From: a virus
DNA: 64,000 nt
Strand: one strand, 5' to 3'
UHGV virus genome: UHGV-1682877
Shown: in pieces, positions 2,746-32,350 of the stretch
How positions within the stretch are numbered: the first letter of the stretch is position 1
How the letters are laid out: the number at the start of each line of letters is the position of its first letter
The notes under the pieces: generated by a model
The model's database searches: none
What the model saw: only the letters and a program-made list of their open reading frames with translations
Told to the model about the DNA's origin: nothing
Position numbers and translations under genes: made by a program

Positions 2746-3029
2746 AAGCCATTTATAAAGCACATGGCGTTGATTTTTGGGAATGGGATACAACTTGGAC
2801 TAAAGAAGAAGCCTTACAATCTTTAAAAGATTTTTTTAAATCTATTAATCATAATGTTATAATTTTTAGTGCTGATAAACTTAAATATGGTTTTTACATT
2901 GAATCTGAATGTGCTTGGGTTGCACATATCTTTTATGGCGGTATTTTAGTAATTGATAAAGATGATTATTATTTTTATTCTTATTATCATAAGAATAAAT
3001 TTAAAGAATCTTTTGGAGGAATTGAGTGA
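2742..3029 (+). CDS. hypothetical protein
   Basis: ORF track, overlapping-stop operon. Confidence 0.45.
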   Translation: MKAIYKAHGVDFWEWDTTWTKEEALQSLKDFFKSINHNVIIFSADKLKYGFYIESECAWVAHIFYGGILVIDKDDYYFYSYYHKNKFKESFGGIE

Positions 3030-4311: not shown

Positions 4312-5985
4312 ATGGAAGATTTTATGAACAAATTAAATCTTACTAAAGATGAAGATTTATTAGATTTTTATTTTCAAACTTACGGCGATGATGAAGCTAT
4401 GCCAGCAAGAAATTATCTTAAATTTTGGCATGAAGCTAAAAGTGAATACTTGCTTCCTCTTTTCAAGAATCAGCTTATTTACAAGAAAGAAATCAGTTTT
4501 GATGTAGATACTGAAATTCTTATTTCAAGAATTCACAGACTTTTTATTAAAGATAATAAAAATTCTAATATCTATTACAAACTTAAAAATAGATTATTTG
4601 AAATTGTTGATAATTTATTTCCTAATGTAAGTAAAGATATTCGTATAAACAAAGATGTTTCTTGTGATTCATACCTCTGGGTAAGTTCTTGTTTAAATTT
4701 TCGCACTCTAGCTTTGAATAGAACTGCAACTACTTTTCAATATAATAATTTTAAAATCCCGCAAGGTACAAAAGTTTTTAAAGCTTTTAAATCTTTTGTT
4801 AATTTTGCATTGAAAAATAAACTTATTGAACAAATTGAGTATGATGAAATAAATGATTTTATTGAATATTTGCGGATTCAACATTCTCAAGTATTTAACC
4901 AAAAAAAGATTTCCGGCAATTTATGTATCTCAATTCATCCTATGGATTATATTACCATGAGTGATAATGGTAATAATTGGGAATCTTGTATGCGCTGGGG
5001 CGATGGCGGAGGAGATTATAAAGTAGGTACTTTGGAAATGCTTAATTCTCCTTCTGTTGTAGTTTGTTATCTTGAAAGCAAAAAACCTTGGAATATCAAT
5101 GATGATTATTCCTGGAATAATAAGAAATGGCGGGAATTATTTATTGTTGATAAAAATTTTATTTGTGGTATCAAAGGTTATCCATATCCTAGTGTTTATT
5201 TGGAGACTATGTGCGCTAATTGGTTAGCAGATTTAGTTGAAGAATATTATCACAATAAGTTTGATAGAACTAATTTCCGCTATGATAAAAAAATTACATT
5301 TGAAACTATTCTAATGTATAATGATATTAATGCAAATGGAGAATGTTTTTTATACTACTCAGAGGATGCTATTGAAGCAGATGAAGAAATTGAATTTAAT
5401 TACAGTGGATATGCAAGATGTTTGAGATGCGGTGAAATTATTTCTGAAGATTGGACAGATTCAGATACTTTATCTAGTATGTTTCTTTGTCCTAATTGCG
5501 CAGGTTTGATATTTTGTGCAGATTGTGGCGATTTAATTAATCCAGAAGATTATGGCGTTGAACACAATGGAAACTGGTATTGTGAAGAATGTATGTTAGA
5601 TCATGGCTTCTTCTGTAGTGAGTGTGATGAATTTCATTGGAATGATGAAGATGAAAACACCGCAATTTATGTTGCGTACAAAGATAAAAATTCTGAACAA
5701 GTAGAATTAAGAATACTTAATTATTTATGCTCTGATTGTATTAATGAAAATCTTGAATATGGAAATATTGTTGAAGTAGAATATGAAGGCAAAAAATATT
5801 ATGTTGCCACTGTTGATTTTATTACTTCAGAATATATTAGTCAAGTTTCTCGCTATGGCGATAAAGATGGACATAAAATGATTTCTACCTTTGCTTTTTA
5901 CCATGATTTAACTCTTAATAAAACAATCTTGTACAATCCTGAATACTTTATCAATAAGGAGTATTTAAATGAAGAAAATGACTAA
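4312..5985 (+). CDS. unknown-function protein, paralog family A, with C-terminal multi-Cys zinc-ribbon array
   Basis: 557 aa; core NWESCMRWGDGGGDY; C-terminal CxxC clusters; paralog of 8092-9396. Confidence 0.6.
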   Translation: MEDFMNKLNLTKDEDLLDFYFQTYGDDEAMPARNYLKFWHEAKSEYLLPLFKNQLIYKKEISFDVDTEILISRIHRLFIKDNKNSNIYYKLKNRLFEIVDNLFPNVSKDIRINKDVSCDSYLWVSSCLNFRTLALNRTATTFQYNNFKIPQGTKVFKAFKSFVNFALKNKLIEQIEYDEINDFIEYLRIQHSQVFNQKKISGNLCISIHPMDYITMSDNGNNWESCMRWGDGGGDYKVGTLEMLNSPSVVVCYLESKKPWNINDDYSWNNKKWRELFIVDKNFICGIKGYPYPSVYLETMCANWLADLVEEYYHNKFDRTNFRYDKKITFETILMYNDINANGECFLYYSEDAIEADEEIEFNYSGYARCLRCGEIISEDWTDSDTLSSMFLCPNCAGLIFCADCGDLINPEDYGVEHNGNWYCEECMLDHGFFCSECDEFHWNDEDENTAIYVAYKDKNSEQVELRILNYLCSDCINENLEYGNIVEVEYEGKKYYVATVDFITSEYISQVSRYGDKDGHKMISTFAFYHDLTLNKTILYNPEYFINKEYLNEEND

Positions 5986-7342: not shown

Positions 7343-7377
7343 TTTTATAAAACTCACCAAAGGTGAGTTTTATAAAA
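7343..7377 (+). terminator. terminator-like hairpin (same core as 33550)
   Basis: aaactcacc aaa ggtgagttt hairpin. Confidence 0.45.
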
Positions 7378-7400
7378 CAAATAAGAAAGATGGGGATGAT

Positions 7401-8126
7401 ATGAAACTAAATAATTATGATTATAGATTTTTAAAAAAGTTGTTACAGTCTACACAGCATGAACTATTAGAATTTTTACCCAAAGCGCTTAATGCCATTT
7501 ACCATAAAGAAGATATTATTATTACCAATAATTATATTTGCGCTAAAGGTGATATCCCAGTAGCTTTAGTTGCTCATTTAGATACCGTATATCCAGAACC
7601 ACCTAAACAGATTTTTCATGATCCAGAATATAATATTATTTGGGGAACAAATGGTTTGGGTGCAGATGATAGAGCAGGCGTTTTTGCTATTTTAAATATT
7701 TTAGAATGTGGCTATAAGCCTACTGTAATTTTTTGTTGCGATGAAGAAAATGGCGGTTTAGGTGCTTATCAACTGACTAAAGATTTTTCAAAACCTTTCA
7801 CCAATTTTGAAATGCTTATTGAGCTAGACCGCCAAGGAACAAAAGATGCAGTATATTATTCATTAAATAACACTGATTTTGAAAATTATATCAATAATTA
7901 TGGATTTGAAACTGCGGTAGGTGTATTCACAGATATTTGTATTCTAGGCCCAATTTGGGATGTTCCCGCAGTTAATCTTTCTGTTGGTTATTTTAATGAA
8001 CATAGTTATGCGGAAATGCTTTATTACCCAGCTTTATTTGATACTATTGATAAGGTTTGTTTAATTTTAGAAGAAAAGAGGACAAAAGACTTTGAATTTA
8101 CAGAAATCACTGGAAGCAGCAATTAA
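7401..8126 (+). CDS. M20/M28/M42-type zinc metallopeptidase-like protein
   Basis: AHLDTV, GADDRAG, DEENGGLG motifs. Confidence 0.55.
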   Translation: MKLNNYDYRFLKKLLQSTQHELLEFLPKALNAIYHKEDIIITNNYICAKGDIPVALVAHLDTVYPEPPKQIFHDPEYNIIWGTNGLGADDRAGVFAILNILECGYKPTVIFCCDEENGGLGAYQLTKDFSKPFTNFEMLIELDRQGTKDAVYYSLNNTDFENYINNYGFETAVGVFTDICILGPIWDVPAVNLSVGYFNEHSYAEMLYYPALFDTIDKVCLILEEKRTKDFEFTEITGSSN

Positions 8127-18829: not shown

Positions 18830-20053
18830 TTGGCTTTTGATTTTAAACCTATTACAAAAATTTGTTTAAATATTACAGAAATGTGCCAGTGTGCTTGTCC
18901 TTTTTGTTTTGCAGAATATCACCCTCATAGAATATCTTACCAAGTTGCAAAGGATGCGGCAGACTGGATTATTAAAAATTCAGAATTAACAGGAGAAGTA
19001 GGATCTATCGGTTTTTTTGGCGGTGAACCGCTTCTTGAATGGGATACGATTATTGTTCCACTTACCAAGTATATTAAAGATGAGCGAGGATTAAAAGATT
19101 TTGAATTGGGTGTTACGACAAATTGTCTTTTGCTTGATGAAGAAAAGTTAAAATTTATGAAAAAATATGACTTTGGTTTACTATGCTCTATTGATGGAGC
19201 AAAAGAAACTCAAGATTATAATAGACCTTGCCGCAATGGACAAAGTAGCTTCGATATTATTGATGAAAAGATTCCTTTAATTCTAAAATATTTTCCAGAT
19301 ACTTTAATGCGTTCTACTATTATTCCCGCAACATGTGAACATTATTTTAAAAATTTAGAGTATGGATGGAATAAAGGATTCTATCATAGTTTTACAATTA
19401 TTAATCAATTTGAAGAATGGCCCGAAGATAAAAGAAAAATTCTTGAAGAGCAAGTTAGAAAATTTTCTAATTATTTAATTACATGTTTTAGAGAAGGATT
19501 GCCTTTTATGCGCCAACGAACTCTTGAACAAGCAATTAATAAAATAGTTGGAACAAATCTTCATTTTGCTCAAGGTAATGTTGAAAGAATTAAATTTGAT
19601 GATTTAGGAAGATGTTGTGGACTTGGTAGTGGATATGGTGCTATTAATTATGAAGGAGACATTTTTACTTGTCAAGAAGCAGTAAGCCGAGAAAAAGATA
19701 AAAATATTTTTTATATTGGAAATATTTATACTGGTATTGACAAAGAGCGTCAACAAAAATTATTTGATGATGTATATGCTAATGGTGGAAATGTTTATAA
19801 TTCTGTCGATAAAAATAAGTGTAAAGAATGTCCAATAGAAGCTAGCTGTAATATGAATAGTTGTTTAGTTAATAATTATTTAGAAAGACAATTATTTGAC
19901 ATTCAAGCAGATGCAATGTGTTGGTGGAATAATCTTATGGCGAAAGAAGCTCAATATATTTGTTATATACTTGGTACAGAAAATAATGAATATTTTAAAG
20001 ATTATTTTAAATGGGTAATTACCTCACAAGGAGGGACACTTAGCAATGATTGA
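18830..20053 (+). CDS. radical SAM enzyme with C-terminal SPASM-like Cys cluster
   Basis: CQCACPFC (CxxxCxxC), GGEPLL, C-terminal CKECPIEASCNMNSC; TTG start 18830 after RBS aaggagg. Confidence 0.75.
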   Translation: MAFDFKPITKICLNITEMCQCACPFCFAEYHPHRISYQVAKDAADWIIKNSELTGEVGSIGFFGGEPLLEWDTIIVPLTKYIKDERGLKDFELGVTTNCLLLDEEKLKFMKKYDFGLLCSIDGAKETQDYNRPCRNGQSSFDIIDEKIPLILKYFPDTLMRSTIIPATCEHYFKNLEYGWNKGFYHSFTIINQFEEWPEDKRKILEEQVRKFSNYLITCFREGLPFMRQRTLEQAINKIVGTNLHFAQGNVERIKFDDLGRCCGLGSGYGAINYEGDIFTCQEAVSREKDKNIFYIGNIYTGIDKERQQKLFDDVYANGGNVYNSVDKNKCKECPIEASCNMNSCLVNNYLERQLFDIQADAMCWWNNLMAKEAQYICYILGTENNEYFKDYFKWVITSQGGTLSND

Positions 20054-20795
20054 GTATATTCCTATTTCTAACAATTTAGCAGAAACTGTAGCAGAAATTG
20101 CTAATAAAAAATTTGAAGGCATGGTGCGAGAAGGAATAAATAATGGCGGAATTGTTGCTTTTGCAGATGGTTGTACTGGTTGCGAAAGTGGATGTTCTGG
20201 TTCTTGTACTGGAAGCTGTAGTAGCAGTTGTAAAGATAGTTGTAAGGATACTTGCAAAGATACCTGTAAAGGAAGTTGTAAAAACGGATGTAAAGAAGGG
20301 TGTAAAGGAAAATGTACTGGTAGCTGTCAATCTAGCTGCGAAAATGCCTGCGCACCTGGGTGTCAGTATAATTGTGAAGATGGTGGGCAAACAGTAGAAA
20401 CTTACAATTCTACAAGGCAGTATACTTTTGATGGTTGGTCTAGTACCGTAAGTCCAAACTCTACTATTAATATTTCTGCTGATGATTGGAATACCCTTGC
20501 AGGTAAAGTTAAAGGAGCAGCTCGTGCGGGTTGGGAGAAAAATGTAAGTGTGACAAGAGCATCTTCTGGAGGATGGATTACTGCTGCAATATATAATTCT
20601 ATGGTTAATGGATTAAATTCTTTGGGTAATTCTTTAGGAAGTGTTGGTTCTTCGACTTACATTGAAGCAAGTCATTTTTCTAAATTAACCAATGCATTAA
20701 ATAAAGCAACTATTCCAAAGAAAAAATGCTGCGAGTTAAAAGAATATTGTATGGAAAGTTGCAATGAAACAAGAGGCCCATTAACTGGTTCTTAA
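20046..20795 (+). CDS. Cys-repeat protein, candidate substrate of upstream radical SAM enzyme
   Basis: about 16 consecutive CxxxC units (CKDSCKDTCKDTCKGSC...), 8 nt overlap with upstream gene. Confidence 0.6.
   Translation: MIEYIPISNNLAETVAEIANKKFEGMVREGINNGGIVAFADGCTGCESGCSGSCTGSCSSSCKDSCKDTCKDTCKGSCKNGCKEGCKGKCTGSCQSSCENACAPGCQYNCEDGGQTVETYNSTRQYTFDGWSSTVSPNSTINISADDWNTLAGKVKGAARAGWEKNVSVTRASSGGWITAAIYNSMVNGLNSLGNSLGSVGSSTYIEASHFSKLTNALNKATIPKKKCCELKEYCMESCNETRGPLTGS
20170..20370 (+). repeat. 12 bp-periodic coding tandem repeat
   Basis: tgtaaagatagt-like units. Confidence 0.6.
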
Positions 20796-20956: not shown

Positions 20957-21151
20957 ATGAATAAGATTATTTTTAAAGCTAAGAATTGGACTATGACTTT
21001 TAGAACTAGACAGCAAGCCCTTAATTTTATCCGTAAAAATTCCATTAATCCTTATACTGCCAATATTTTGGTTCTTATTGGTACTCAGGATGTATTTCAT
21101 TTGGGTTCTCCTCGTGCAGATCAGTATTTTGGACTGAAAAGAAAAAATTGA
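20957..21151 (+). CDS. hypothetical small protein
   Basis: ORF track. Confidence 0.4.
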   Translation: MNKIIFKAKNWTMTFRTRQQALNFIRKNSINPYTANILVLIGTQDVFHLGSPRADQYFGLKRKN

Positions 21152-21176
21152 AAATTTAAAAAAAATATGATATAAT
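21148..21176 (+). promoter_or_regulatory. promoter for tRNA island 2
   Basis: ttgaaa-17-tataat. Confidence 0.5.
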
Positions 21177-21263
21177 ATTTAAGGAAAGACTTGTACAGCA
21201 AATAAAGCTTAAAAGCACTTGACTGGTAATCAAGAAGAAAATGAGTCTTGCTTAAATATTCAT

Positions 21264-21349
21264 GTGGGCGTGATGAAATAGGAAAACATATCGCACTTAA
21301 AATGCGCTGCTAATCTAGCTTGTGGGTTCGAGTCCCATCGCCCACACCA
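21264..21349 (+). tRNA. tRNA-Leu (anticodon TAA)
   Basis: acceptor gtgggcg/cgcccac, loop cttaaaa, long variable arm, CCA. Confidence 0.65.
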
Positions 21350-21350
21350 T

Positions 21351-21390
21351 CTTTAAAACTGATACTCTTTACTATTAGTTTTAAAGATAA
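21351..21390 (+). other. perfect 12 bp inverted-repeat hairpin between tRNAs
   Basis: atctttaaaact ... agttttaaagat. Confidence 0.5.
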
Positions 21391-21413
21391 CAATGAACTT
21401 GAGTTTACTGATA

Positions 21414-21491
21414 TGCGTCTGTAACTCAACTGGATAGAGTAACTGCCTTCTAAGCAGTAAGCCAGGGGTTCGAGTCCCTTCAGGCGTACCA
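21414..21491 (+). tRNA. tRNA-Arg (anticodon TCT)
   Basis: loop cttctaa, T-arm aggggttcgagtccctt, CCA. Confidence 0.65.
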
Positions 21492-21676
21492 AGCAGAACT
21501 ATAATAGGCAACAAAAGGAAATAGCTGATGTGAAAGGCATCTTGTCTTGCTGACATGACAATAAACTTTGAACGGGCGTATAATGCGTATCGTGCCTGCG
21601 GGTGTAGAGTCAGAAAAGTAGGGGAATAATTGAGGAGCAGCTATAGGTGAGGCCCCACCTCCACCTTCCTTAATAT

Positions 21677-21768
21677 GGGGCAATGGCAGAGTTTGGCTTA
21701 TTGCACTTGTCTTGAAAACAAGCAAACTAGCAATAGTTTCACTGGTTCAAATCCAGTTTGCCCCGCCA
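21677..21768 (+). tRNA. tRNA-Ser (anticodon TGA)
   Basis: acceptor ggggcaa/ttgcccc, loop cttgaaa, long variable arm, CCA. Confidence 0.65.
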
Positions 21769-21772
21769 ATAA

Positions 21773-21846
21773 GCAGGTATAGTTTAATGATAGAACTCTG
21801 GACTTCCACTCCAGCGATGCGGGTTTGATTCCCGTTACTTGCTCCA
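21773..21846 (+). tRNA. tRNA-Gly (anticodon TCC)
   Basis: loop cttccac, T-arm gcgggtttgattcccgt, CCA. Confidence 0.65.
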
Positions 21847-21909
21847 TAAAGATACTCACAGCAATTTATTTTTTATAATGGGTATAAAAAAATAAAGTAT
21901 CTTGTATTT

Positions 21910-21985
21910 GCTAACGTGGCGCAACAGGTAGCGCAGCGGCCTTGTAAACCGCAGGTTAAGAGTTCAAGTCTCTTCGTTAGCTCCA
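21910..21985 (+). tRNA. tRNA-Thr (anticodon TGT)
   Basis: acceptor gctaacg/cgttagc, loop cttgtaa, CCA. Confidence 0.65.
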
Positions 21986-21987
21986 AT

Positions 21988-22063
21988 GGTTCGCTAGTTC
22001 ATTAGGTAGAACACTTGCCTTTTAAGCAAGATGTGCTGGGTTCAAATCCCAGGCGAGCCACCA
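21988..22063 (+). tRNA. tRNA-Lys (anticodon TTT)
   Basis: loop cttttaa, T-arm ctgggttcaaatcccag, CCA. Confidence 0.7.
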
Positions 22064-22437
22064 TTAGTCTTATCATACAGACGTAAAATAAATGAGTACC
22101 CCAGATAATGCTGAACTGGGTATCCGGGTATCGGGAGAATTAGTCTGGCAACTGTTGAAGCGACGATACTGCGTGACCAGGCATAAGGGCGACCTAAGTC
22201 GTTAGCTATGGGTAAACAGGTTGATAGCCGCATAGTAAAATGTTTCCTTGCGTCATTAAAATGCAAGGCGTTATAGGAGAGACGGCGGAGCATTACTCAT
22301 CTCCACTCCTTCTGCTACGAGAAGTAGAAAATCAAGGCTTCTGAGAAATGCTAATGAGAATGGTCAACCTCTGATTAAAAAAGGACTAAAGCTAGCTTAG
22401 GTTTTAGGTTATCCTCCTTACGAGGGAAAACCTTATT
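22064..22437 (+). ncRNA. structured non-coding region, candidate novel ncRNA
   Basis: ~370 nt with no RBS-supported ORF, locally GC-richer, multiple hairpins (ccttgc/gcaagg, cttct/agaag, nested ggtt-cctc/gagg-aacc). Confidence 0.3.
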
Positions 22438-22522
22438 TGCCAGAATGTTGGAATTGGTAGACAAAGAAGTCTCAAAAACTTTCGCTTTATGCGTGCGGGT
22501 TCGAATCCCGCTTCTGGTACCA
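22438..22522 (+). tRNA. tRNA-Leu (anticodon CAA)
   Basis: acceptor gccagaa/ttctggt, loop ctcaaaa, long variable arm, T-arm gcgggttcgaatcccgc, CCA. Confidence 0.65.
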
Positions 22523-22594
22523 TTATATTTTTAAATTATTTATAAAGACCTTAACAGCAAAGACTTGGACAGTAAATCCGTAGCTTAAAGTTGC

Positions 22595-22640
22595 GCAGGT
22601 TCAAATCCTGCCCTCCACACCATATGTGGAGGTAGAGAAG
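22595..22640 (+). other. orphan tRNA T-arm plus permuted acceptor-like hairpin
   Basis: gcaggttcaaatcctgc then cctccaca-ccata-tgtggagg; no matching 5' half. Confidence 0.35.
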
Positions 22641-22734
22641 TGGTTAAACTCCGCGGAACCAAAAACAAATGGTCTAGGAATTATTTCTCTCTTGCCTAAG
22701 AGAGAAAACTAAAAAACAAAAGGAGAAAGTTATT

Positions 22735-24258
22735 ATGGAAAATAAGATGCTTAATATTTTGAAGGAAAAGAATACTCATTCTATCACTGAGAACGGCGGT
22801 TTGACTTATAATTCTACTATGAATGGAATTATGGATTTGTTTGCTCTTGGTGGTGCTTATCGAAATCGCTCAGATGATGATTGTATTTTTCTTTTTAAGA
22901 AGGCTTTTGAGGAAGATATTTCTTATGCTTTGAAGTGTCTCTTTTATTTGCGAGACGTACGCGGTGGACAGGGAGAACGCAGATTTTTTAAGGTCGTAAC
23001 TTCTTGGTTGGCAGTTAATCACACCGAGGAAATGCGTAGAAATCTGAAGTATGTTCCTGAGTATGGTCGCTGGGATGATTTGTATGCTTTTGTTGATACT
23101 CCGCTTGAGGCAGATGCTTTTAAGACTATGTATCATCAGCTTGCTCTTGATGTTCAGTGTAAAACTCCTTCTCTTTTGGCTAAGTGGTTGAAGTCTGAAA
23201 ATACTTCTTCTGCAGAATCTCGTATGCTTGGAGCTAAAACCAGAATGGCTTTTAATATGTCTCCTAAGCAGTATCGCAAGATTCTCTCTATTCTTCGTGA
23301 AAGAATTAGAGTTTTGGAAAGACTGATGAGTGAAAACCGTTGGGATGAAATTGAATTTGATAAGATTCCTTCTAAGGCAGGTCTAAAGTATCGCAATGCT
23401 TTTGCAAAGCACGATATTGAAAGAGAAAAGTCTAATAAGGTAACTTATGAAGAGTTTGTAAAGGATTCTAATACTAAGGTCAATGCTGATACTTTGAATC
23501 CCGCAGATGTAGTTCATGCTGTTGTTTCTAAATTTCCCTATTATAGAGGAAATTTTAATGGAACTGATGTGGAGAGAGCTGCACTCAATAAGTATTGGGA
23601 TAATCTAAAGGATTATTTTAATAATGCTGTTTTTGACGGTGTTGCTGTCGTTGATACTTCTGGTTCTATGTGTGGTTTTTATGGTAGTGAGAAAACTATT
23701 GCACCTATTGATGTAGCTATTTCTCTTGGTATGTATTGTGCTGAGAAGTGTAATCCCAATTCTCCCTGGTATGGACATTATATTACTTTTTCCCGAACTG
23801 CAAGATTGGTACCTGTTGAAGGTATTGATTTTGTTGATAAGGTGCGTAGAATTTATCAAAAGAATCTTTGTGAGAATACCAACATTAAAAGTATTTTTGA
23901 TTTGCTATTGAGCAATGCTATTAAATATAATATTCCTAATGAAGAAATGCCTAAAAACATTGTAATCATTAGTGATATGGAATTTGATTATTGCGCTGGT
24001 TACTATAATAGTGATGAATACAAGTCTGAAATGGAAAAGATTATGCAAGTTTGGAACTCTCATGGTTACACTACTCCACATTTGATTTTCTGGAATGTTG
24101 ACGCTCGAAATGATAATATTCCCATGAAGATGAAGGATGGTATTACTTTTATTTCTGGTTATTCTGCGGTAACTTATGAAATGTTGATGACTGGTAAAAC
24201 TGGTTTTGATTTGGTTTTGGAAAAGTTGAACAATAAGAGATATGAGGTAATCAAGTAA
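22735..24258 (+). CDS. vWA/MIDAS-domain protein with helical N-domain (DUF2828-like; possibly TROVE/Ro60-like)
   Basis: DTSGSM MIDAS motif near residue 305; N-terminal ENGGLTY...DLFALGGAYR...RDVRGGQGERR. Confidence 0.5.
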   Translation: MENKMLNILKEKNTHSITENGGLTYNSTMNGIMDLFALGGAYRNRSDDDCIFLFKKAFEEDISYALKCLFYLRDVRGGQGERRFFKVVTSWLAVNHTEEMRRNLKYVPEYGRWDDLYAFVDTPLEADAFKTMYHQLALDVQCKTPSLLAKWLKSENTSSAESRMLGAKTRMAFNMSPKQYRKILSILRERIRVLERLMSENRWDEIEFDKIPSKAGLKYRNAFAKHDIEREKSNKVTYEEFVKDSNTKVNADTLNPADVVHAVVSKFPYYRGNFNGTDVERAALNKYWDNLKDYFNNAVFDGVAVVDTSGSMCGFYGSEKTIAPIDVAISLGMYCAEKCNPNSPWYGHYITFSRTARLVPVEGIDFVDKVRRIYQKNLCENTNIKSIFDLLLSNAIKYNIPNEEMPKNIVIISDMEFDYCAGYYNSDEYKSEMEKIMQVWNSHGYTTPHLIFWNVDARNDNIPMKMKDGITFISGYSAVTYEMLMTGKTGFDLVLEKLNNKRYEVIK

Positions 24259-24268
24259 ATAGTATTTT

Positions 24269-24297
24269 AAGAGAGGTAAAATTACCTCTCTTTTTTT
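24269..24297 (+). terminator. rho-independent terminator
   Basis: agagaggtaa/ttacctctct hairpin plus TTTTTTT. Confidence 0.65.
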
Positions 24298-24312: not shown

Positions 24313-25374
24313 ATGATATTATTAAATGATGATAATAGACACAGAGATTTTACAGGTGTAACTCGTTTTCACAATGCAGGTTATTTTGGAGAAAGAGTAA
24401 ATGCCGCAAGTGGAGAAACCTGGGATGTTAATAGATATAATCCAGATAATTTAGTAAGAAATTGCTTAAAGGATAAACAATTTTCAGATGAACATCCAAT
24501 AAATACTGCGGCAACATTTTTTCAAGTAGCTCCAAAAGCTCATCTATTTATGCTTTATTCCATTGATGGCAGTTATGGTAGTGGAGATAATTATAACTCT
24601 AAATTTTTTAATGAATCAGTAGAAATTATTGAAAAATATAATATTACTAATATGTTTACCTCTTTAAATTGTAGTAGACATACTAAATTTTTTGAAGATT
24701 TAAAAAATTGGTATATTAAACATCCTAGTTTTAAACCCTTTTGGTGCGCAGGAAATGATTCTTCTAAAAAATATAATCCAATTATGGAAATTGAAGAAGT
24801 AATTGGTGTAGCCGCTTATACTTTAATGGTAAATGGTACAGTAAATCCTGCTTATTATTCTAGTATTAGTAGTTATGTAGACTTTTCTGCACCTAGTATG
24901 ATTTATTTAAATCCGCAAGCTACAAAACCAGACGCAGCAACTTATTCCAATTCTGGTACTTCTTTTTCTACACCTTGGTTATGTGGAATGAGCTGTTTAG
25001 TAGATGATTTCTTTATTGATAAAAAAGGATTACCTCTAACAAGAGAAGGAATGATTCAATTCTTTAAAGATAATTGTAAAGATATAGGCGATAAGGGTAT
25101 TGATCCAAAAACAGGATTTGGCGCAGTAATTTTACCTGAACCAAATTCTATTGATATTGATAAATATTATAATATTGGGAGGACAAATATGAGTACATTA
25201 GATAAATTTAAAGATAAAAATGATATTTCTAATTGGGCTAAAGCAAGTATTGAATGGGCTGTTAATACAGGTATTCTTCAAGGTGACGATAAAGGCTATC
25301 TTTTACCCAAAGCTTACCTAACTAGAGAGCAAATGGCAGTTATGTTAGAGCGTTTTAAAAATATTATAAAATAA
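24313..25374 (+). CDS. subtilisin-like serine protease with C-terminal SLH-like wall-binding domain
   Basis: SNSGTSFSTPW catalytic Ser motif; C-terminal WAVNTGILQGDDKGYLLP...LTREQMAVML. Confidence 0.6.
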   Translation: MILLNDDNRHRDFTGVTRFHNAGYFGERVNAASGETWDVNRYNPDNLVRNCLKDKQFSDEHPINTAATFFQVAPKAHLFMLYSIDGSYGSGDNYNSKFFNESVEIIEKYNITNMFTSLNCSRHTKFFEDLKNWYIKHPSFKPFWCAGNDSSKKYNPIMEIEEVIGVAAYTLMVNGTVNPAYYSSISSYVDFSAPSMIYLNPQATKPDAATYSNSGTSFSTPWLCGMSCLVDDFFIDKKGLPLTREGMIQFFKDNCKDIGDKGIDPKTGFGAVILPEPNSIDIDKYYNIGRTNMSTLDKFKDKNDISNWAKASIEWAVNTGILQGDDKGYLLPKAYLTREQMAVMLERFKNIIK

Positions 25375-25380
25375 TTTTAA

Positions 25381-25410
25381 GGGAGTCAAAATGACTCCCT
25401 TTTTATTTTT
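25381..25410 (+). terminator. rho-independent terminator
   Basis: gggagtca/tgactccc hairpin plus T-run. Confidence 0.65.
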
Positions 25411-25479
25411 TTAAAAAAATATTATATAATATATATAGAAAGTTAAGGAATAAATAAATAAGAAAGAAGTTGAAATTTT

Positions 25480-25749
25480 ATGATTTATAGAAAAAGCAAA
25501 TACAGTAAAGATCAGACTGCAATTTGGCAAGGTGAAACTGCGGTTATTCTTGCTCAATCAGCAGAAGCTATGACAATAGATGAAATTAAAAACAATAGTA
25601 TTCAATTAACAGGTGTTTCTACTCAAAAAATGGCTAGGATTCTTGGGCATTTGATTGAAATGGGTATGGTAACAAAAGCAAAAAGCAAAAGTGGAAAAAT
25701 GGTCTATAAATCTTTGGCAGTAATGGAAATGCAAGGTTATGAAATTTAA
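25480..25749 (+). CDS. hypothetical protein
   Basis: ORF track. Confidence 0.4.
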   Translation: MIYRKSKYSKDQTAIWQGETAVILAQSAEAMTIDEIKNNSIQLTGVSTQKMARILGHLIEMGMVTKAKSKSGKMVYKSLAVMEMQGYEI

Positions 25750-25768
25750 ATAAAGGAGTTTGATATTT

Positions 25769-27037
25769 ATGGCATACTATGGTTTAGTAACTAAAATTGA
25801 AAATGTAAGAAAAGACCCTAATTCTGATAGACTCTATTTGGCTGATTGTTTTAGAGAAGGAGTTATTGTAGGCCCTAATATGAAGGAAAGCGAGTTGGTT
25901 CTTTATCTTCCTACTGATGGAGCTATTGAGCGTTGGTTTGGTGATGAGTTTAAACTTTTCCGCAAGAATTTAGATGGTACCGCGCAAGGTGGTTATTTGG
26001 AAAATAATGCTCATATTAGAGCAATTAAGCTAAGAGGTAATGAATCTTCTGGTATTGTTATTTCTTATTCTACTATTGTTGAGCATTTTGGTGAGCAAAA
26101 TTGGAAAGATGGCGATCAGGTCACTGAAATTAATAATAAGCTATTTTGTTATAAATATATTCCTAAACCTTCGGCTATTCCTCGCACTACTCCTAAAACT
26201 TCTTATAAAGGTCGTAAAGCAGCTGGAATTAAGTATCCTGATTTTGCCATGCATATTGATACTGCCCAATTAGCTTACAATCTTGGAATTTTTAGACCTG
26301 GAGATAAAATTAATCTAACCCTTAAAATGCATGGAACTAGCCAGCGTAGTGCATATACTTGGGCAGAATATCCTATGTCTTGGTTTAGAAAGCTATTTCA
26401 CATGAAACCTAAGAGAAAGTTGCAGTATGTTTTAGGTACTCGTAGAACTGTTGTTACTACTGATGGGGTAGGTTATTATGGTAATGACAAATTTAGATTT
26501 AGTCACCATGAAGCTTTAAAACCTTATCTCGATGAAGGTATGGAAGTTTTTTATGAAGTAGTTGGTTGGTATGGAGCAAAAGAAAATGAAACTATTATGC
26601 CAATTGTAGATAATAGTAAAATTAATGACAAGAAATTTATGAAAAAGTTTGGTAAGTATACTACTTTTTCTTATGGTTGTACTCCTGGTCATTCTGCAAT
26701 GTGGATTTATAGAATTACTTCTCATAATGGTGAATATGAATATTCTCCAGAGGAAATTACTACTTGGTGTAATGAATATGGTTTTAATCGTGTTCCTATT
26801 ATTGAGGATTTTGAATTTACTACTGTTGATGACTTGCTCGCTAAAATTGACAAATATTTTGAAGATATTGTTGACCCAGTTGGTTTAACTCATGTTAAAG
26901 AAGGTGTAGTAGTTAGAATTGCTAATAGACGTACTTTTACTGCATTAAAACAAAAAACCTGGGAGTTTAAAGTCCTTGAAGGTCTAGTTAAAGATACTGA
27001 AACCCAGCCCGATATGGAAGAAGCACAGGAGGTTTAA
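25769..27037 (+). CDS. Rnl2-family RNA ligase with N-terminal tRNA-binding OB domain
   Basis: N-terminal LVTKIENVRKDPNSDRLYLADCF (tRNA-binding fold); KMHGTS motif I like T4 Rnl2 KIHGTN; EGVVVR motif IV; KQK motif V. Confidence 0.6.
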   Translation: MAYYGLVTKIENVRKDPNSDRLYLADCFREGVIVGPNMKESELVLYLPTDGAIERWFGDEFKLFRKNLDGTAQGGYLENNAHIRAIKLRGNESSGIVISYSTIVEHFGEQNWKDGDQVTEINNKLFCYKYIPKPSAIPRTTPKTSYKGRKAAGIKYPDFAMHIDTAQLAYNLGIFRPGDKINLTLKMHGTSQRSAYTWAEYPMSWFRKLFHMKPKRKLQYVLGTRRTVVTTDGVGYYGNDKFRFSHHEALKPYLDEGMEVFYEVVGWYGAKENETIMPIVDNSKINDKKFMKKFGKYTTFSYGCTPGHSAMWIYRITSHNGEYEYSPEEITTWCNEYGFNRVPIIEDFEFTTVDDLLAKIDKYFEDIVDPVGLTHVKEGVVVRIANRRTFTALKQKTWEFKVLEGLVKDTETQPDMEEAQEV

Positions 27038-27039
27038 AT

Positions 27040-27489
27040 ATGACTTTAGAAATTATGCACAATGACATGATGCAGGCTTTGAAGAATGGTGATACTCAAA
27101 AGAAGAATGTACTTTCCAATATGATTGGTGAAGTACAAAAAGCAGCAATTACGCCAAAAGGCAGAATTGAAATTACCGAAGAGCTTGTTAATAATACTTT
27201 AATCAAGTATCAAAAGATGATTCAAGAAATGATTGATACTTGTCCAGAAAACCGCAAAGAGTTATTTATTCAATATAATCTTGATATGGCTGTTGTAAAG
27301 CAGTATGCACCACAACTTCTCACTGACAAAAAAGCAATTAAAACTCAAATTGAAAAGATGCTTGCAGAAAATGAGCTTGATGCAATTAAGGCAAATAAAG
27401 GTAGAGCAATGAAACTTTTTGCTCCTGTTTTTAAGGGTAAGGCAGATATGAAAATTGTTAATCAAATTGTGTCGGAGGTAATGACCTAA
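27040..27489 (+). CDS. YqeY/GatB-domain protein
   Basis: architecture matches YqeY family, C-terminal GKADMKIVNQIVSEVM. Confidence 0.6.
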   Translation: MTLEIMHNDMMQALKNGDTQKKNVLSNMIGEVQKAAITPKGRIEITEELVNNTLIKYQKMIQEMIDTCPENRKELFIQYNLDMAVVKQYAPQLLTDKKAIKTQIEKMLAENELDAIKANKGRAMKLFAPVFKGKADMKIVNQIVSEVMT

Positions 27490-27890: not shown

Positions 27891-27937
27891 TTAAGGGCAA
27901 AGATTAAGATCTTTTGCCCTTAATTTATTTTTTTAAA
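27891..27937 (+). terminator. rho-independent terminator
   Basis: ttaagggcaaa/tttgcccttaa hairpin plus T-run. Confidence 0.6.
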
Positions 27938-27985
27938 AATTTATATTATAATATATATAGAAAGTTAAGAAAGGAATTGATATTT

Positions 27986-28699
27986 ATGAATAAGAGTAAA
28001 GTTTATTGTTTTACTGACCTTCATGGCAATTCAAATTTGTTTAAGCAGATTAAAAATTTCATTCAAGCAGAAGATAAAGTGTTCGTGCTGGGTGATGTAA
28101 TTGACAGAGGGACAGAAGGTTGGAAAATACTTAAAGAAATTTTAAAAGATGAAAGATTTACTCTTCTTAAAGGAAATCATGAACAAATGTTAGTAGATTC
28201 TGGAAGAGAATTTTTAAAAAATGAAAGATGTCTATATGGAGATGATATTTATCGTCACATGAATAATGGAGGTTTATCTACTTTACTAGACTGGTCTAAA
28301 GAAAAAAATGCTATTGAGTATTTAAATTTAATTAATAAACTTCCAGTTTATGAACAATACACTAATAAAAATGGAATTAAAATTCATTTAAGTCATGCAG
28401 GTTTTTCTCCTAATAATATTTCTGGTGATGAATTTGATTTTCTTTGGAATAGATTACATTATAAATTTAGATGTTTAATTAATCCAAATGAATTAATTAT
28501 TCATGGCCATACCCCAATTCCTCTAATGATAGAAGATATAGGAGAATTTCGCAATCCTCCCAAATATGAAGGTGGAGCTTGTTGGTATAATAATAATCAA
28601 AAGGTTAATCTTGATTTAGGTACTCATTGGAGTAAGCAAATTATCCTTTTTGATTTAGATACTTTTGATGAACATATCTTTTCTGCTCAAGGAGAATAA
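27986..28699 (+). CDS. calcineurin-like metallophosphoesterase (PP2A/ApaH-like)
   Basis: FTDLHGN, VLGDVIDRG, KGNHE, IIHGHTP. Confidence 0.8.
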   Translation: MNKSKVYCFTDLHGNSNLFKQIKNFIQAEDKVFVLGDVIDRGTEGWKILKEILKDERFTLLKGNHEQMLVDSGREFLKNERCLYGDDIYRHMNNGGLSTLLDWSKEKNAIEYLNLINKLPVYEQYTNKNGIKIHLSHAGFSPNNISGDEFDFLWNRLHYKFRCLINPNELIIHGHTPIPLMIEDIGEFRNPPKYEGGACWYNNNQKVNLDLGTHWSKQIILFDLDTFDEHIFSAQGE

Positions 28700-29106: not shown

Positions 29107-29374
29107 AGACCCTAGAAAATATGAAATGCATGATTTTTATTGTATGAATTGCGGAAAGAAGTCAATGTCAATTCCTCGATTAAGAGGACGTTTTAGAGAA
29201 GTTGGGCATAAGAAAGTTATGTATTGCCCTCATTGTAAAGAAACTGTTAATATGGTAGAATGTAGAAATGATGAAGAAGCGTATAATTTTAAACTAGATT
29301 TTGAAGAAGGACTTTTTAAAGAAGAAGCACAAAATAGTATTTCTTATGTAAAGGAGTTTGGTATTTATGATTAA
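29099..29374 (+). CDS. zinc-ribbon protein
   Basis: CMNCG ... CPHCK. Confidence 0.45.
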   Translation: MSKDPRKYEMHDFYCMNCGKKSMSIPRLRGRFREVGHKKVMYCPHCKETVNMVECRNDEEAYNFKLDFEEGLFKEEAQNSISYVKEFGIYD

Positions 29375-29870
29375 TTTGCATATTCTTTGCGGTATTCCTG
29401 CTTCCGGTAAATCTACCTGGGCAAAACAACAGAATGGTAAAATTATCTCAAGAGATGAAATCCGCAAGAATTATGTAGGCGAAAATCCTGGAAAAAATTA
29501 TTTTAGTAAAGAAAAACAGGTATATAAAGAAATGATTGCAAATATTAAAATCGCAATTAAAGAAAATGTAGAAAATATTTATATAGATGCGACTCATATT
29601 GATATTGTTTCAAGAACTAAACTTTTAAACAATTTTTTTAATCTGAAAGATAAGAATAATATTAATCTTACTTTTGATTATTTTCCTATTCTTTTAGATG
29701 TTGCTTTAAAAAGAAATTCTGAAAGAGAAGGTTTTGCTAAAATTCCAGAAGAAGCAATAAAAAATTTTTATTTTAAATCTTCTATTCCTTCCAAAGATGA
29801 GATGAATAAATATCTTGATTGGGGTTTTCATAATGTGAATACTATTTTGCATTATACTGAGGAGGTGTAA
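29367..29870 (+). CDS. pnk: polynucleotide kinase (T4 Pnk kinase-domain-like)
   Basis: GIPASGKSTWA P-loop; KRNSEREGFAKIPEEAIKNFY parallels T4 Pnk KRNSKRGTKAVP..MY. Confidence 0.7.
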   Translation: MINLHILCGIPASGKSTWAKQQNGKIISRDEIRKNYVGENPGKNYFSKEKQVYKEMIANIKIAIKENVENIYIDATHIDIVSRTKLLNNFFNLKDKNNINLTFDYFPILLDVALKRNSEREGFAKIPEEAIKNFYFKSSIPSKDEMNKYLDWGFHNVNTILHYTEEV

Positions 29871-29872
29871 TA

Positions 29873-30415
29873 ATGGTTTGGTTTACCAGTGATCTTCATC
29901 TAGGCCATAATAAGCCCTTTCTTTATGAACCAAGAGGGTTTAAGAATATTCAAGAACATGATAACGCAATTATTGAAAATTGGAATAAAATTATTCGTCC
30001 TAATGATAAAGTTTATGTGCTTGGCGATTTGATGCTAAATGATAATGAAGCAGGAATTGAAAAAATTAAACAATTAAAAGGACAAATTTATGTAGTTAGA
30101 GGAAACCATGATAGTGAAGTTCGTGTAAATTTATATAATAATTGTAACAATATTATTAAAGTAACTGAAGGTCAATTTTTAAGATATGGTAAATATCATT
30201 TTTATTTAAGTCATTATCCTACACTTTGTAGTAATTTTGATAATGAGAAACCTCTTAAAGCAAGAATGATTAGTTTGTGCGGACATTCTCATAGTCAGGA
30301 TGCTTTTGCGAATTGGGATAAAGGTCTTATTTATCATGTAGAATTAGATGCTCATAATAATTTCCCTGTTTCTATTGATTCGATTATTAAGGATATTAAA
30401 AATAGAATTAAGTAA
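29873..30415 (+). CDS. calcineurin-like metallophosphoesterase, candidate 3'-phosphatase partner of Pnk
   Basis: TSDLHLGH, VLGDLMLND, RGNHD, LCGHSH. Confidence 0.7.
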   Translation: MVWFTSDLHLGHNKPFLYEPRGFKNIQEHDNAIIENWNKIIRPNDKVYVLGDLMLNDNEAGIEKIKQLKGQIYVVRGNHDSEVRVNLYNNCNNIIKVTEGQFLRYGKYHFYLSHYPTLCSNFDNEKPLKARMISLCGHSHSQDAFANWDKGLIYHVELDAHNNFPVSIDSIIKDIKNRIK

Positions 30416-31078: not shown

Positions 31079-32350
31079 TTGAACAATAGGAGAGTGGAAA
31101 TTATTATTAAATTCTACGATACTTGTAGTCTTTTATTAGCCGGGGAATCAGCTTTTGAAGATAATGAAAAATTTATCATTTCTTCTATTACTTTAAAAGA
31201 ATTAGAAAGAATTAAAACCGCGGCAAATAAAGATTCTGATATAAAATATTCCGCAAGACTTTTGCTTCATTTATTTGAAAAATATCCAAATAATTATTCT
31301 GTTAAAATTCATCAAATAAATTATGAATACATTTTAGATAAAATGAATTTTGATATTAATGATGATGCTAGAATTTTGTCTGATGCTTGGAATGAATTTG
31401 AAACAAATAAATGTTTAGAATTTATAACTAATGATTTAAGTTTAAAACATATTGCTTTATGTTTGTTTCCTAAAGAAAATGTTTCTTCTGTTGAAGAAAA
31501 TTTAGATACTTATAGTGGACTTGCAGAAATTACTGCTAGTGAAGAATTAATTTCTGAATTTTATGAAAATCCTAACTATAATCATTTTAATCTTAAAAAA
31601 GGAGAATATTTACTTCTAAAAAATCCTGATAATTTTGATGAACTTATAGATGTGCGGGTTTGGACAGGAGAGACTTATCGTTATTTAAAATTTCCTACTT
31701 TTGATTCTACCTGGTTTGGAAAAGTACAACCATATCAAGGAGATATATATCAAAAATGTGCTTTTGATAGTTTAGCTAATAATAAAATTACTTTACTACA
31801 AGGCCCAGCAGGAGTAGGAAAATCTTACATTTCTTTAGCTTTTTTAATGTATATGTTAGAAAAAAATAGAATAGATAAAATTATAATCTTTTGTAATACA
31901 GTGGCAACTATTAATTCCGCTAAATTAGGGTTTTACCCAGGTACAAAAGACGATAAATTACTTGACTCGCAAATTGGTAATATGCTTTCTGCCAAATTAG
32001 GCGGTAAAGAAGGTGTTCTTCGTATGATGGAAGAAGATAAATTAGTTTTATTGCCTTTTAGCGATATTAGAGGTTATGATACTAGCGGAATGAACGCAGG
32101 TATTTATATAACAGAAGCACAAAATTTAGACAGAACTTTAATTAAATTAGCTCTTCAACGTATTGGTGAAGATTGTATTTGTATTATTGATGGTGACGCT
32201 AAAACACAAGTTGACTCATTAGCTTATTCTGGTAATAATAATGGTATGAGAAGAATGTCTAAAATTTTTAGAGGTTCTGATATTTATGGAGAAGTAACTT
32301 TAAATAATATTCATAGATCTAAAATAGCAGAACTTGCAGAATTAATTTAA
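31079..32350 (+). CDS. phoH: PhoH-like ATPase with N-terminal PIN domain
   Basis: Walker A LLQGPAGVGKSY; PIN-like N-terminus. Confidence 0.75.
   Translation: MNNRRVEIIIKFYDTCSLLLAGESAFEDNEKFIISSITLKELERIKTAANKDSDIKYSARLLLHLFEKYPNNYSVKIHQINYEYILDKMNFDINDDARILSDAWNEFETNKCLEFITNDLSLKHIALCLFPKENVSSVEENLDTYSGLAEITASEELISEFYENPNYNHFNLKKGEYLLLKNPDNFDELIDVRVWTGETYRYLKFPTFDSTWFGKVQPYQGDIYQKCAFDSLANNKITLLQGPAGVGKSYISLAFLMYMLEKNRIDKIIIFCNTVATINSAKLGFYPGTKDDKLLDSQIGNMLSAKLGGKEGVLRMMEEDKLVLLPFSDIRGYDTSGMNAGIYITEAQNLDRTLIKLALQRIGEDCICIIDGDAKTQVDSLAYSGNNNGMRRMSKIFRGSDIYGEVTLNNIHRSKIAELAELI

Follow-up and report, generated by a model that had tools for sequence, protein, structure and literature searches.

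Within the 64,000-nt stretch of UHGV virus genome UHGV-1682877 (hereafter the window), a 136-nt RNA element was recognized at 22544–22679 on the + strand, and it was composed of a frame plus a circularly permuted tRNA-Tyr-like domain; the gene directly downstream (22735–24258) encoded a 507-aa protein of the DUF2828/PHROG 850 family with a predicted fold of the Ro60 class. The element and the protein were together interpreted as a Ro60-like/Y-like ribonucleoprotein (RNP) module, in which the RNA family represented by 22544–22679 would be the partner of the protein; a rough probability of 0.6 was assigned to this reading, with binding, processing, and function taken as presumptive. Ro60 and Y RNAs constitute a conserved RNA-surveillance particle, with the Y RNA on the outer ring surface and misfolded RNA in the cavity, and the bacterial and phage biology of this particle is still thin.

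Architecture of the Tyr-type RNA element

The element displayed the following components:

22544–22679 (+): Y-RNA-like RNA, frame plus circularly permuted tRNA-Tyr-like domain, 136 nt; 135 bits with covariance model R1 (see below)
22546–22550 (+): 5′ strand AGACC of the closing stem P1, partner 22671–22675
22554–22560 (+): ACAGCAA, near-invariant single-stranded motif beside P1
22570–22576 (+): anticodon-loop remnant CAGUAAA (GUA = Tyr; position 33 A, not U), identified from the sequence, alignment A4, and re-permutation
22577–22581 (+): "anticodon-stem" 3′ strand UCCGU, long-range partner 22653–22657 (GCGGA), alternative partner 22565–22569 (UUGGA)
22582–22592 (+): variable arm, class II type
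22595–22611 (+): T-arm GCAGG-UUCAAAU-CCUGC
22612–22632 (+): closed acceptor stem-loop CCUCCAC-ACCA-UAU-GUGGAGG, with encoded CCA
22635–22651 (+): D-arm GAG-AAGUGGUUAAA-CUC
22653–22657 (+): anticodon-stem 5′ strand GCGGA
22658–22670 (+): A-rich linker
22671–22675 (+): 3′ strand GGUCU of P1, followed by AG

This RNA is a tRNA with its natural ends joined by a loop and its new ends opened in the anticodon arm and held by P1, which gave the module order variable arm, T-arm, acceptor, and D-arm (V-T-acceptor-D); its acceptor stem contained G3-C70. The first-pass annotation, made from sequence without database searches, had listed an orphan T-arm here: the T-arm followed by CCTCCAC-ACCA was indeed present at 22595–22611, but it was an inner component of the 22544–22679 RNA and no orphan. 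A local hairpin could also be formed with UUGGA, a repeat of the anticodon-stem 5′ strand located farther upstream, and such a duplicated strand, being the expected leftover of a truncated tandem tRNA duplication, suggests how the element originated.

ACAGCAA was unpaired in minimum free energy (MFE) folds and was found in the elements of 10/10 cultured phages; all seven of its positions were at least 90% conserved in alignment A4, with A, C, A, G, C, and A invariant in alignment A3, and CACCA was near-invariant in A4 as well. By analogy with Y RNAs, in which GGUCCGA/GNCGAA holds this position, ACAGCAA together with the P1 frame is proposed as a candidate protein-binding site. The element lay on the gene's strand, starting ~190 nt and ending 55 nt upstream of the DUF2828 gene in the window, and the same ~190-nt upstream, same-strand placement recurred in loci sharing only 52–55% protein identity.

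Evidence for the fold

The Tyr-type set comprised 28 distinct sequences, collected by an IMG/VR pattern scan and from loci around protein homologues. When the proposed fold was laid on their alignment, 85.5% of cells were paired, compared to 33–55% with partners slid by 1–3 columns; two-sided changes occurred in 20 of the 31 pairs, and the observed values were reached by 0/500 shuffles. The individual helices displayed different profiles across these homologues: (i) the T-arm was 100% paired, with compensatory changes in 4/5 pairs; (ii) P1 was 92.8% paired (compensatory 4/7); (iii) the acceptor stem-loop had compensatory changes in 5/7 pairs, and (iv) the D-arm in 2/3; and (v) the variable arm covaried at 3/4 pairs, but with 55% of its cells paired. 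The long-range "anticodon" stem had two compensatory pairs, compared to one for the local hairpin alternative. Folding energy was better than that of shuffles, with z values of −3.1 for 22523–22734 and −2.8 for 22544–22679.

Re-permutation in silico, by which the D-side half was joined to the anticodon-loop side, converted the window copy into tRNA-Tyr(GTA) with discriminator A and encoded CCA, as called by ARAGORN; the same operation gave tRNA-Tyr(GTA) in 21/28 homologues and some tRNA in 27/28, compared to 0/28 in native order.

Rfam scans (gathering thresholds and E-value) of the window, a 2-kb region, and a 211-nt region recovered tRNAs and noise only, with no family for the element, and the YrlA and Y RNA models were unmatched in four cultured-phage loci too. 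Two candidate matches were discarded: (i) a weak YrlA match at 21930–22045 was simply tRNA-Thr plus tRNA-Lys, and (ii) a transfer-messenger RNA (tmRNA) or permuted tmRNA was rejected on the basis of a tmRNA_permuted score of 14.5 bits (gathering 47), G3-C70 rather than G3:U70, and the absence of any ARAGORN tmRNA from the window. A literature search on permuted tRNA in phages returned nothing relevant, and, per the searched literature and Rfam 15, the Tyr-type/frame RNA is apparently undescribed.

The DUF2828 protein and its predicted Ro60-like fold

The gene and its translation signal were located as follows:

22735–24258 (+): DUF2828/Ro60-like gene, open reading frame (ORF) of 507 aa with ATG start
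22722–22725 (+): ribosome-binding site GGAG of this ORF, identified from the sequence

The 507-aa ORF stood as initially annotated and had an ATG start and a GGAG site. The protein was composed of a helical N-terminal part and a C-terminal von Willebrand factor A (vWA) domain with a MIDAS (metal ion-dependent adhesion site), and the DTSGSM motif pointed out at the first reading was borne out by conservation: in the motif D307-T-S309-G-S311-M and beyond, residues S309, S311, T382, and D414 were invariant across 35 homologues, and D307 was conserved in at least 90% of them. Pfam assigned DUF2828 to residues 149–290 and DUF7788 to residues 302–492 (133.5 and 106.8 bits, above curated thresholds), VWA_2 was weakly matched by 18/35 aligned family members at low threshold, and the protein belonged to PHROG 850 "RNA-binding protein" (E 1.6e-112).

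An AlphaFold2 model built on the 35 homologues had a predicted local distance difference test score (pLDDT) of 76.4 and a predicted template modeling score (pTM) of 0.64. In the Foldseek comparison of this model against PDB, a check that the first-pass annotation had itself named, Ro60/TROVE structures led: the top 12 matches were all Ro60/TROVE over the full length (~510–600 columns, E 5e-8 to 1e-3, 11–18% identity), including 9kop/9l5y (Thermus phage phiLo), 1yvr/1yvp/2i91 (Xenopus), 2nvo Rsr, and human Ro60, and vWA-only proteins ranked after these. The Ro60/TROVE assignment, initially drawn from domain order, was therefore borne out at the level of structure but not of sequence, by which the protein was DUF2828/DUF7788 and not TROVE. 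It is best viewed, from the model, as a putative divergent member of the Ro60 structural class (helical-repeat plus vWA/MIDAS), with a closed ring predicted at most, and as a representative of the large phage family DUF2828/PHROG 850.

At least 8000 DUF2828 homologues were retrieved by homologue search, and the family was present in 704 cultured-phage records (tblastn). Existing annotations of its members included "Ro-like RNA binding protein" in cluster L mycobacteriophages and "RNA-binding protein" in Listeria P100; no functional paper was found in a literature search for DUF2828.

Frame RNAs within the window

A strict frame was defined as AGAN, 1–7 nt, and ACAGC[AT]A, followed no more than 330 nt away by a complementary NTCT[TAC]G; the stem had to be 5 bp or longer. 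Looser patterns (any stem plus ACAGCAA) were noisy, with ~3.4 matches per strand in shuffles, and therefore counts were taken from the strict definition only. The window harbored eight strict frames on the + strand and none on the − strand, compared to a Markov-shuffle expectation of 0.06 per strand, and seven of the eight fell in two tRNA clusters; in 80 related loci, all 61 strict frames were on the strand of the gene, and ~35 unrelated phage loci (~250 kb) contained one in all. Besides the Tyr-type element, the window carried the following frame RNAs:

11481–11597 (+): second permuted tRNA-like frame RNA (R1 35 bits, E 1e-6; fold)
12047–12113 (+): frame RNA with non-tRNA insert
13011–13128 (+): frame RNA enclosing a normal-order tRNA-like sequence (ARAGORN tRNA-??? 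at 13040–13112)
13404–13566 (+): frame RNA with 159-nt insert
21185–21250 (+): frame RNA with an anticodon stem-loop mimic (CUUGA-CUGGUAA-UCAAG) as its insert; conserved in the related locus L001
21848–21906 (+): minimal frame RNA with 8-bp P1, ACAGCAA, and AU-rich loop (MFE z −2.4)

P1 was always formed in MFE folds of the window frames and usually read AGAC.../...GUCU; ACAGCAA was largely unpaired beside P1, facing an A-rich 3′ segment. The ARAGORN tRNA at 13040–13112 had a four-base anticodon (tgaa) in an 8-nt loop; it is enclosed by a frame RNA and therefore may be a tRNA mimic, not a frameshift-suppressor tRNA.

Linkage of frame RNAs to DUF2828 genes

Covariance model R1, built from the 28 Tyr-type sequences, was applied together with regular expressions to cultured-phage loci, and same-strand frame RNAs adjoined the DUF2828 gene in 10/10 cultured phages examined:

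Mycobacteriophage Archie: three tandem frames at 5474–5727, the middle one permuted tRNA-like (40.7 bits), 40–300 nt downstream of gene 55
Listeria P100 and CKA15: a tandem of three frames in each, 75–340 nt upstream of the DUF2828 gene (CKA15 frames at L162 3160–3424, record ~25,289–25,553)
Enterococcus PEF1: three frames, two of them tRNA-like (49 bits each), 130–560 nt upstream of the DUF2828 gene
Bacillus PBC2: eight or more frames in the tRNA cluster upstream of the DUF2828 gene, two of them permuted tRNA-like (52 and 39 bits)
Escherichia coli Bas63: two frames, one of them tRNA-like (41 bits), at L081 7921–7978 and 8463–8588, 0.5–1.2 kb downstream of the gene
Campylobacter Los1: one frame just upstream of the DUF2828 gene
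Twort-like staphylococcal phage: two frames with the ACAGCUA variant just downstream of the DUF2828 gene
Sinorhizobium phiM12: several frames (58, 40.5, and 40.5 bits)
Vibrio D481: two frames

The frame motif was kept in phages of four bacterial phyla, and the P1 sequence varied with pairing kept: GGACUCC/GGAGUCC, AGAAUCU/AGAUUCU, AGGAAUC/GAUUCCU, and AAGCGGCA/UGUCGCUU. The Archie and Twort-like loci contained no tRNA within 9–17 kb, and therefore frames beside DUF2828 in these loci point to a link with the gene and not merely with tRNA clusters. Frames were absent from the tRNA-rich regions of T4 and T5, and the stretches fetched from them contained no DUF2828 gene. R1 matches of up to ~32 bits lying on pairs of neighboring ordinary tRNAs (e.g., P100 742–868, T4 4322–4447, and T5 2899–3026) were discarded.

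Region between the tRNA cluster and the gene

The sequence upstream of the gene was further dissected into the following features, in addition to the element:

22064–22250 (+): "Unit A" of the spacer, conserved non-coding sequence that may or may not belong to the module, ~88% identity in L136/L164
22439–22522 (+): tRNA-Leu(CAA), final ordinary tRNA of the cluster (ARAGORN; Rfam tRNA 52 bits)
22684–22707 (+): hairpin in the 5′ untranslated region (5′-UTR) of the Ro60-like gene, UUUCUCUCUU-GCCU-AAGAGAGAAA

The first-pass annotation had described this region as ~370 nt of hairpin-rich sequence followed by tRNA-Leu(CAA), the T-arm element, and a further hairpin, and had looked there for a Y-RNA-like partner. 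The tRNA-Leu and the further hairpin were recovered at the positions listed above. The 375-nt spacer (22064–22438) was not hairpin-rich, with an MFE no better than shuffles (z −0.38; first half z +0.26) and no Rfam match; the Rfam models for Y RNA and YrlA, proposed as a probe of the region, matched neither the spacer nor the element. The candidate partner did lie directly upstream of the gene, as the 22544–22679 element, but was neither the spacer nor tRNA-Leu, and covariation was seen in 20/31 pairs of the element; the spacer had three compensatory pairs, all in Unit A (two in a 3′ hairpin and one in a CCCAG/CUGGG hairpin), and no energy signal. Spacer homologues (nhmmer and blastn) were found in L001, with the first ~185 nt also in L136/L164 and the remaining ~190 nt in L001 only; the Unit A copies (L136 1775–1950 and L164 ~5352–5538, − strand) were located between tRNA-Tyr and tRNA-Met. 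A frame-like start UAGUCUUAUCAUACAGACG in the spacer was too weak to claim.

The 5′-UTR hairpin had the core CUUG[CU]C[CU]AAG ~45 nt before the start codon in 53/77 loci, and most of the others carried variant hairpins; its stem covaried between lineages, and a TATAAT-type promoter occurred just upstream of it in many loci. It is possibly an operator or an mRNA-stabilizing hairpin.

Transcription unit and gene neighborhood

The window contained 17 tRNAs by ARAGORN, tRNA-Tyr not among them, and seven of these were located at 21264–22522 (ARAGORN and Rfam). DNA similarity to cultured phages was limited to tRNA matches. The surrounding features were as follows:

21148–21176 (+): sigma-70-like promoter TTGAAA-17-TATAAT with TG extension, before the tRNA/frame/Ro60-like unit; consensus match only
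24269–24292 (+): intrinsic-terminator-like hairpin plus T-run, directly 3′ of the Ro60-like gene
25760–27037 (+): RNA ligase, first gene of the downstream RNA-repair cassette (PHROG 968 E 1.5e-45; Pfam)
27040–27489: YqeY/GatB-like protein of the cassette (PHROG/Pfam)
27914–28699 and 29873–30415: two metallophosphoesterases of the cassette (PHROG/Pfam)
29358–29870: AAA_33 P-loop kinase of the cassette (PHROG/Pfam)
31079–32350: PIN-PhoH protein of the cassette (PHROG/Pfam)

On the basis of the promoter at 21148–21176 and the terminator-like hairpin at 24269–24292, a single transcription unit plausibly spans the tRNAs, the RNAs between them, and the protein gene. P100 and CKA15 carried RtcB, RNA ligase, and "tRNA amidotransferase" genes at the place equivalent to the RNA-repair cassette. 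Within the tRNA cluster, the 185-nt gap between tRNA-Arg and tRNA-Ser (21492–21676) contained a promoter-like site ATGACA-18-TATAAT at 21555–21584; this gap was conserved in L001 only. Further upstream (18794–20795), a gene for a radical SAM enzyme (419 aa) overlapped the start of that for a 249-aa protein with many successive CxxxC repeats (PHROG 6085, a family without assigned function); these two could be a maturase-substrate pair.

Several observations concerned the related and cultured-phage loci. Tiny hypothetical coding sequences (CDSs) were annotated over frame RNAs, for example bas63_0137 (L081 8430–8704) and PEF1 7368–7502 and 7640–7822 (L156 7368–7962), and also over a super-abundant non-coding RNA (ncRNA) of CKA15 (L162 2015–2325); these CDSs are probably mis-annotations. 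The ~490-nt CKA15 region concerned (L162 1986–2477; record 26,236–26,727) was reported to give up to 67% of transcripts; it was conserved in P100 (L155 3439–3978), where it had no Rfam match, and neither the window nor the other loci contained a homologue of it. PEF1 carried an ARAGORN-predicted phage tmRNA (L156 4434–4781; tag AKNEELLAVA*) in the tRNA cluster upstream of its DUF2828 gene. A tRNA-Cys(GCA) of 86–87 nt with an unusually long variable arm was located between tRNA-Leu(CAA) and the Y-like RNA in L002, L005, L006, L010, L063–L067, and L074–L078, and CUA-anticodon (amber-reading) tRNAs were present in several related loci.

Comparison with known systems

YrlA is bound by Ro60, is modified by TruB and DusA, and in some species is cut by RNase P and receives a CCA addition. 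It is encoded beside Ro60 in 254 bacteria and 22 phages and has the order V, T, closed acceptor stem-loop, and D, with paired termini (PMC4201824). YrlA (RF02553) and the element shared same-strand proximity to a Ro60-type gene (<~4 kb), paired ends, the V-T-acceptor-D order, consensus nucleotides of the T- and D-loops, and the potential for a CCA end (as in M. smegmatis YrlA), but the element had no Rfam match, contained ACAGCAA in place of GNCGAAN0-1G, and had DUF2828 rather than TROVE as the partner gene; it also retained a recognizable whole tRNA-Tyr including the anticodon loop, and its frame carried non-tRNA inserts elsewhere. The tRNA-like Y-RNA partner initially proposed thus held in its YrlA-like layout, backed by covariation, and did not hold as a member of Rfam YrlA.

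Ro60, Rsr, and phiLo Ro60 (1yvp, 2nvo, and 9kop/9l5y), the best structural matches of the 507-aa protein, likewise had helical repeats followed by vWA/MIDAS; unlike them, the 507-aa protein had no detectable sequence similarity to this group, and its ring closure and RNA-binding surfaces would come from the model at most. The bound partners of phiLo Ro60 are two Y-like RNAs encoded by the phage, and PNPase (PMC12135203). Closer in sequence were Bas63 gp130 and CKA15_055, homologous over 95–99% of the query at 29–33% identity (CKA15_055 33%), whose genes adjoined tRNA clusters as in the window. Bas63 gp130 is Ro60-like and counters the Ppl defense system (10.1101/2024.10.10.617714); CKA15_055, from a P100-like Listeria phage, had Rsr as its best HHpred match and was detected in virions, and upstream of its gene are highly transcribed non-coding regions that may, the authors suggest, be Y RNAs (PMC12282133). 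Both papers speculated on nearby Y RNAs and defined no RNA (10.1101/2024.10.10.617714; PMC12282133), whereas specific conserved frame RNAs are now located beside both genes. Already known are phage Ro60/Y RNA pairs, the Ro60-likeness of DUF2828 (annotations and two papers), and the suggestion of nearby Y RNAs; apparently new are an RNA family backed by covariation, with a motif of its own, a head formed by a whole permuted tRNA, and modular variants, and its phylogenetically wide linkage to DUF2828.

Interpretation and alternative explanations

Under the RNP reading, one transcript running from the promoter near 21148 to the terminator at 24269 would contain the tRNA cluster, the RNA, and the protein gene, and tRNA-processing enzymes would release the RNA from it; the frame (P1 plus ACAGCAA) would then bind the protein to form the RNP, in which the tRNA-like arm may tether enzymes of tRNA handling or RNA decay or else serve as a decoy. 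Other frame RNAs may give the same protein alternative specificities. Such an RNP could survey or repair cleaved tRNAs/RNAs, or act against host defense; the setting in a tRNA plus RNA-repair island makes these roles likely, and counter-defense is possible, with Bas63 gp130 (against Ppl) and the phiLo Ro60-Yrl-PNPase assembly (PMC12135203) as parallels. The wider proposal, that frame RNAs are widespread modular phage Y-like RNAs and the cognate ligands of a DUF2828 branch of Ro60-like proteins, is tentative and stands slightly short of even odds.

Several results weighed against the RNP reading. On the protein side, (i) template modeling scores (TM-scores) to Ro60 structures were low (0.31–0.45) at moderate model confidence (pLDDT 76), and the claim is therefore limited to the Ro60 fold class and does not extend to a closed ring; (ii) Pfam TROVE (PF05731) was unmatched in 35/35 family members even at E ≤10; and (iii) the DUF2828 family profile retrieved no Ro60 chain from PDB. 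On the RNA side, (iv) the element scored nothing with Rfam YrlA (RF02553) or Y RNA (RF00019), at gathering thresholds or E ≤10, and (v) the Ro-binding motif GNCGAAN0-1G (GGUCCGA in animals) was not in the element, whose 5′ region read AGACCUUAACAGCAAAG; ACAGCAA is unlike that motif, and therefore we infer binding to the Ro60-like protein from linkage and analogy. As for linkage, (vi) L001, the closest relative with 98% protein identity, lacked exactly 22526–22682 (157 nt; compared with L001 3380–4030) and kept the tRNA, the 5′ hairpin, the gene, and other frame RNAs. ATTAT was present at both edges of this segment in the window, which therefore points to a recent deletion or insertion, and this copy is therefore dispensable or was recently gained or lost, with other frames remaining in L001. 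In addition, (vii) only two negative-control phages (T4 and T5) were compared; (viii) some IMG/VR loci with the element showed no DUF2828 within the 5–14 kb fetched; and (ix) the co-occurrence could partly arise from shared ancestry of tRNA-rich phages.

The observations on clusters and on L001 also bear on an alternative in which frame RNAs are autonomous small RNAs, or processing or punctuation modules of tRNA operons, that share an island with DUF2828 without being its ligands. Such modules might serve as RNase III or RNase E cleavage stems, or be stable by-products comparable to the "stable RNAs" of T4 and T5. The location of seven of the eight strict window frames inside tRNA clusters, the abutment of many frames on tRNA 3′ ends, and the loss of the gene-proximal copy from L001 with the gene kept would all suit this explanation, as would the stable RNAs of unknown function in T4 (rnaC and rnaD) and T5 (RNA1, RNA2, and RNA3 "tRNA-like"), which like the frames are small non-tRNA RNAs in phage tRNA operons. 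These stable RNAs, however, had no frame motif, the T4/T5 tRNA regions being devoid of frames and their R1 matches being artifacts of adjacent tRNAs; a simple RNase III stem needs no conserved single-stranded heptamer; and the frames of Archie and the Twort-like phage flanked DUF2828 with no tRNA in 9–17 kb. This explanation is accordingly considered unlikely, though it is the strongest of those set against an RNP. Much less is to be said for the element as a cis-acting leader of the Ro60-like mRNA, a tRNA-mimic operator serving autoregulation or the sensing of a tRNA signal: its distance of ~55 nt from the gene, equal in several lineages, and the conserved hairpin that comes after it would fit, but elements lay downstream of the gene in Archie, the Twort-like phage, and Bas63, other copies were kilobases off, and L001 had the hairpin and the gene without the element, making a leader very improbable.

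Two further explanations start from the tRNA-like domain itself. In the red alga Cyanidioschyzon, permuted tRNA genes yield functional tRNAs, and the element could by the same logic be a true permuted tRNA-Tyr gene, whose transcript ends, kept together by P1, would be cleaved and ligated by phage RNA ligase and end-healing enzymes and whose loop would be opened by RNase P plus 3′ trimming, giving tRNA-Tyr(GUA). Permuted or split tRNA genes (Cyanidioschyzon merolae; Nanoarchaeum) resembled the element in having the 3′ part first, a break in the anticodon arm, and paired flanks; the re-permuted copy was an entire tRNA-Tyr that has A as discriminator and an encoded CCA, CACCA was conserved despite its "loop" position, none of the 17 window tRNAs was tRNA-Tyr, and RNA ligase, kinase, and phosphoesterases were encoded 1.5–6 kb downstream. 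Against this, the setting is bacterial/phage; the termini formed a plain 5–9 bp helix without bulge-helix-bulge; position 33, universally U in tRNAs, was A in the window copy and in about half of the family; the same frame held non-tRNA inserts, and permuted domains without anticodon loop or CCA; L136 had both a normal tRNA-Tyr and the element; and M. smegmatis YrlA gains a CCA end without being a tRNA (PMC4201824). A functional tRNA gene is hence judged improbable. Least credible, and already disfavored, is a decaying, functionless by-product of a tandem tRNA-Tyr duplication: the permuted order, the duplicated anticodon-stem 5′ strand, and the absence from L001 would agree with such a remnant, but compensatory changes in five helices across 28 variants and conservation of the frame motif across four bacterial phyla would not.

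If the wider proposal on frame RNAs is true, one conserved protein-binding frame would display interchangeable heads (whole permuted tRNAs with encoded CCA, anticodon-stem-loop mimics, and other domains), and a single phage would make a family of RNPs that counteract host defenses, tRNA-directed or other, by acting as decoys or adaptors; this would account both for the activity of Bas63 gp130 against Ppl and for the packaging of the Listeria phage homologue in virions. DUF2828/PHROG 850 is present in hundreds of cultured phages, with therapeutic and model phages among them (Listeria P100, Felix-O1-like Bas63, Twort-like staphylococcal phages, and cluster L mycobacteriophages), and in thousands of metagenomic phages. 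A defined RNA signature (closing stem, ACAGCAA, and variable head) makes the published Y-RNA guess experimentally approachable, and the frame RNA family would correct mis-annotated mini-ORFs in many phage genomes. The module would then constitute a second, sequence-unrelated lineage of the Ro60/Y-RNA partnership, built from a permuted tRNA.

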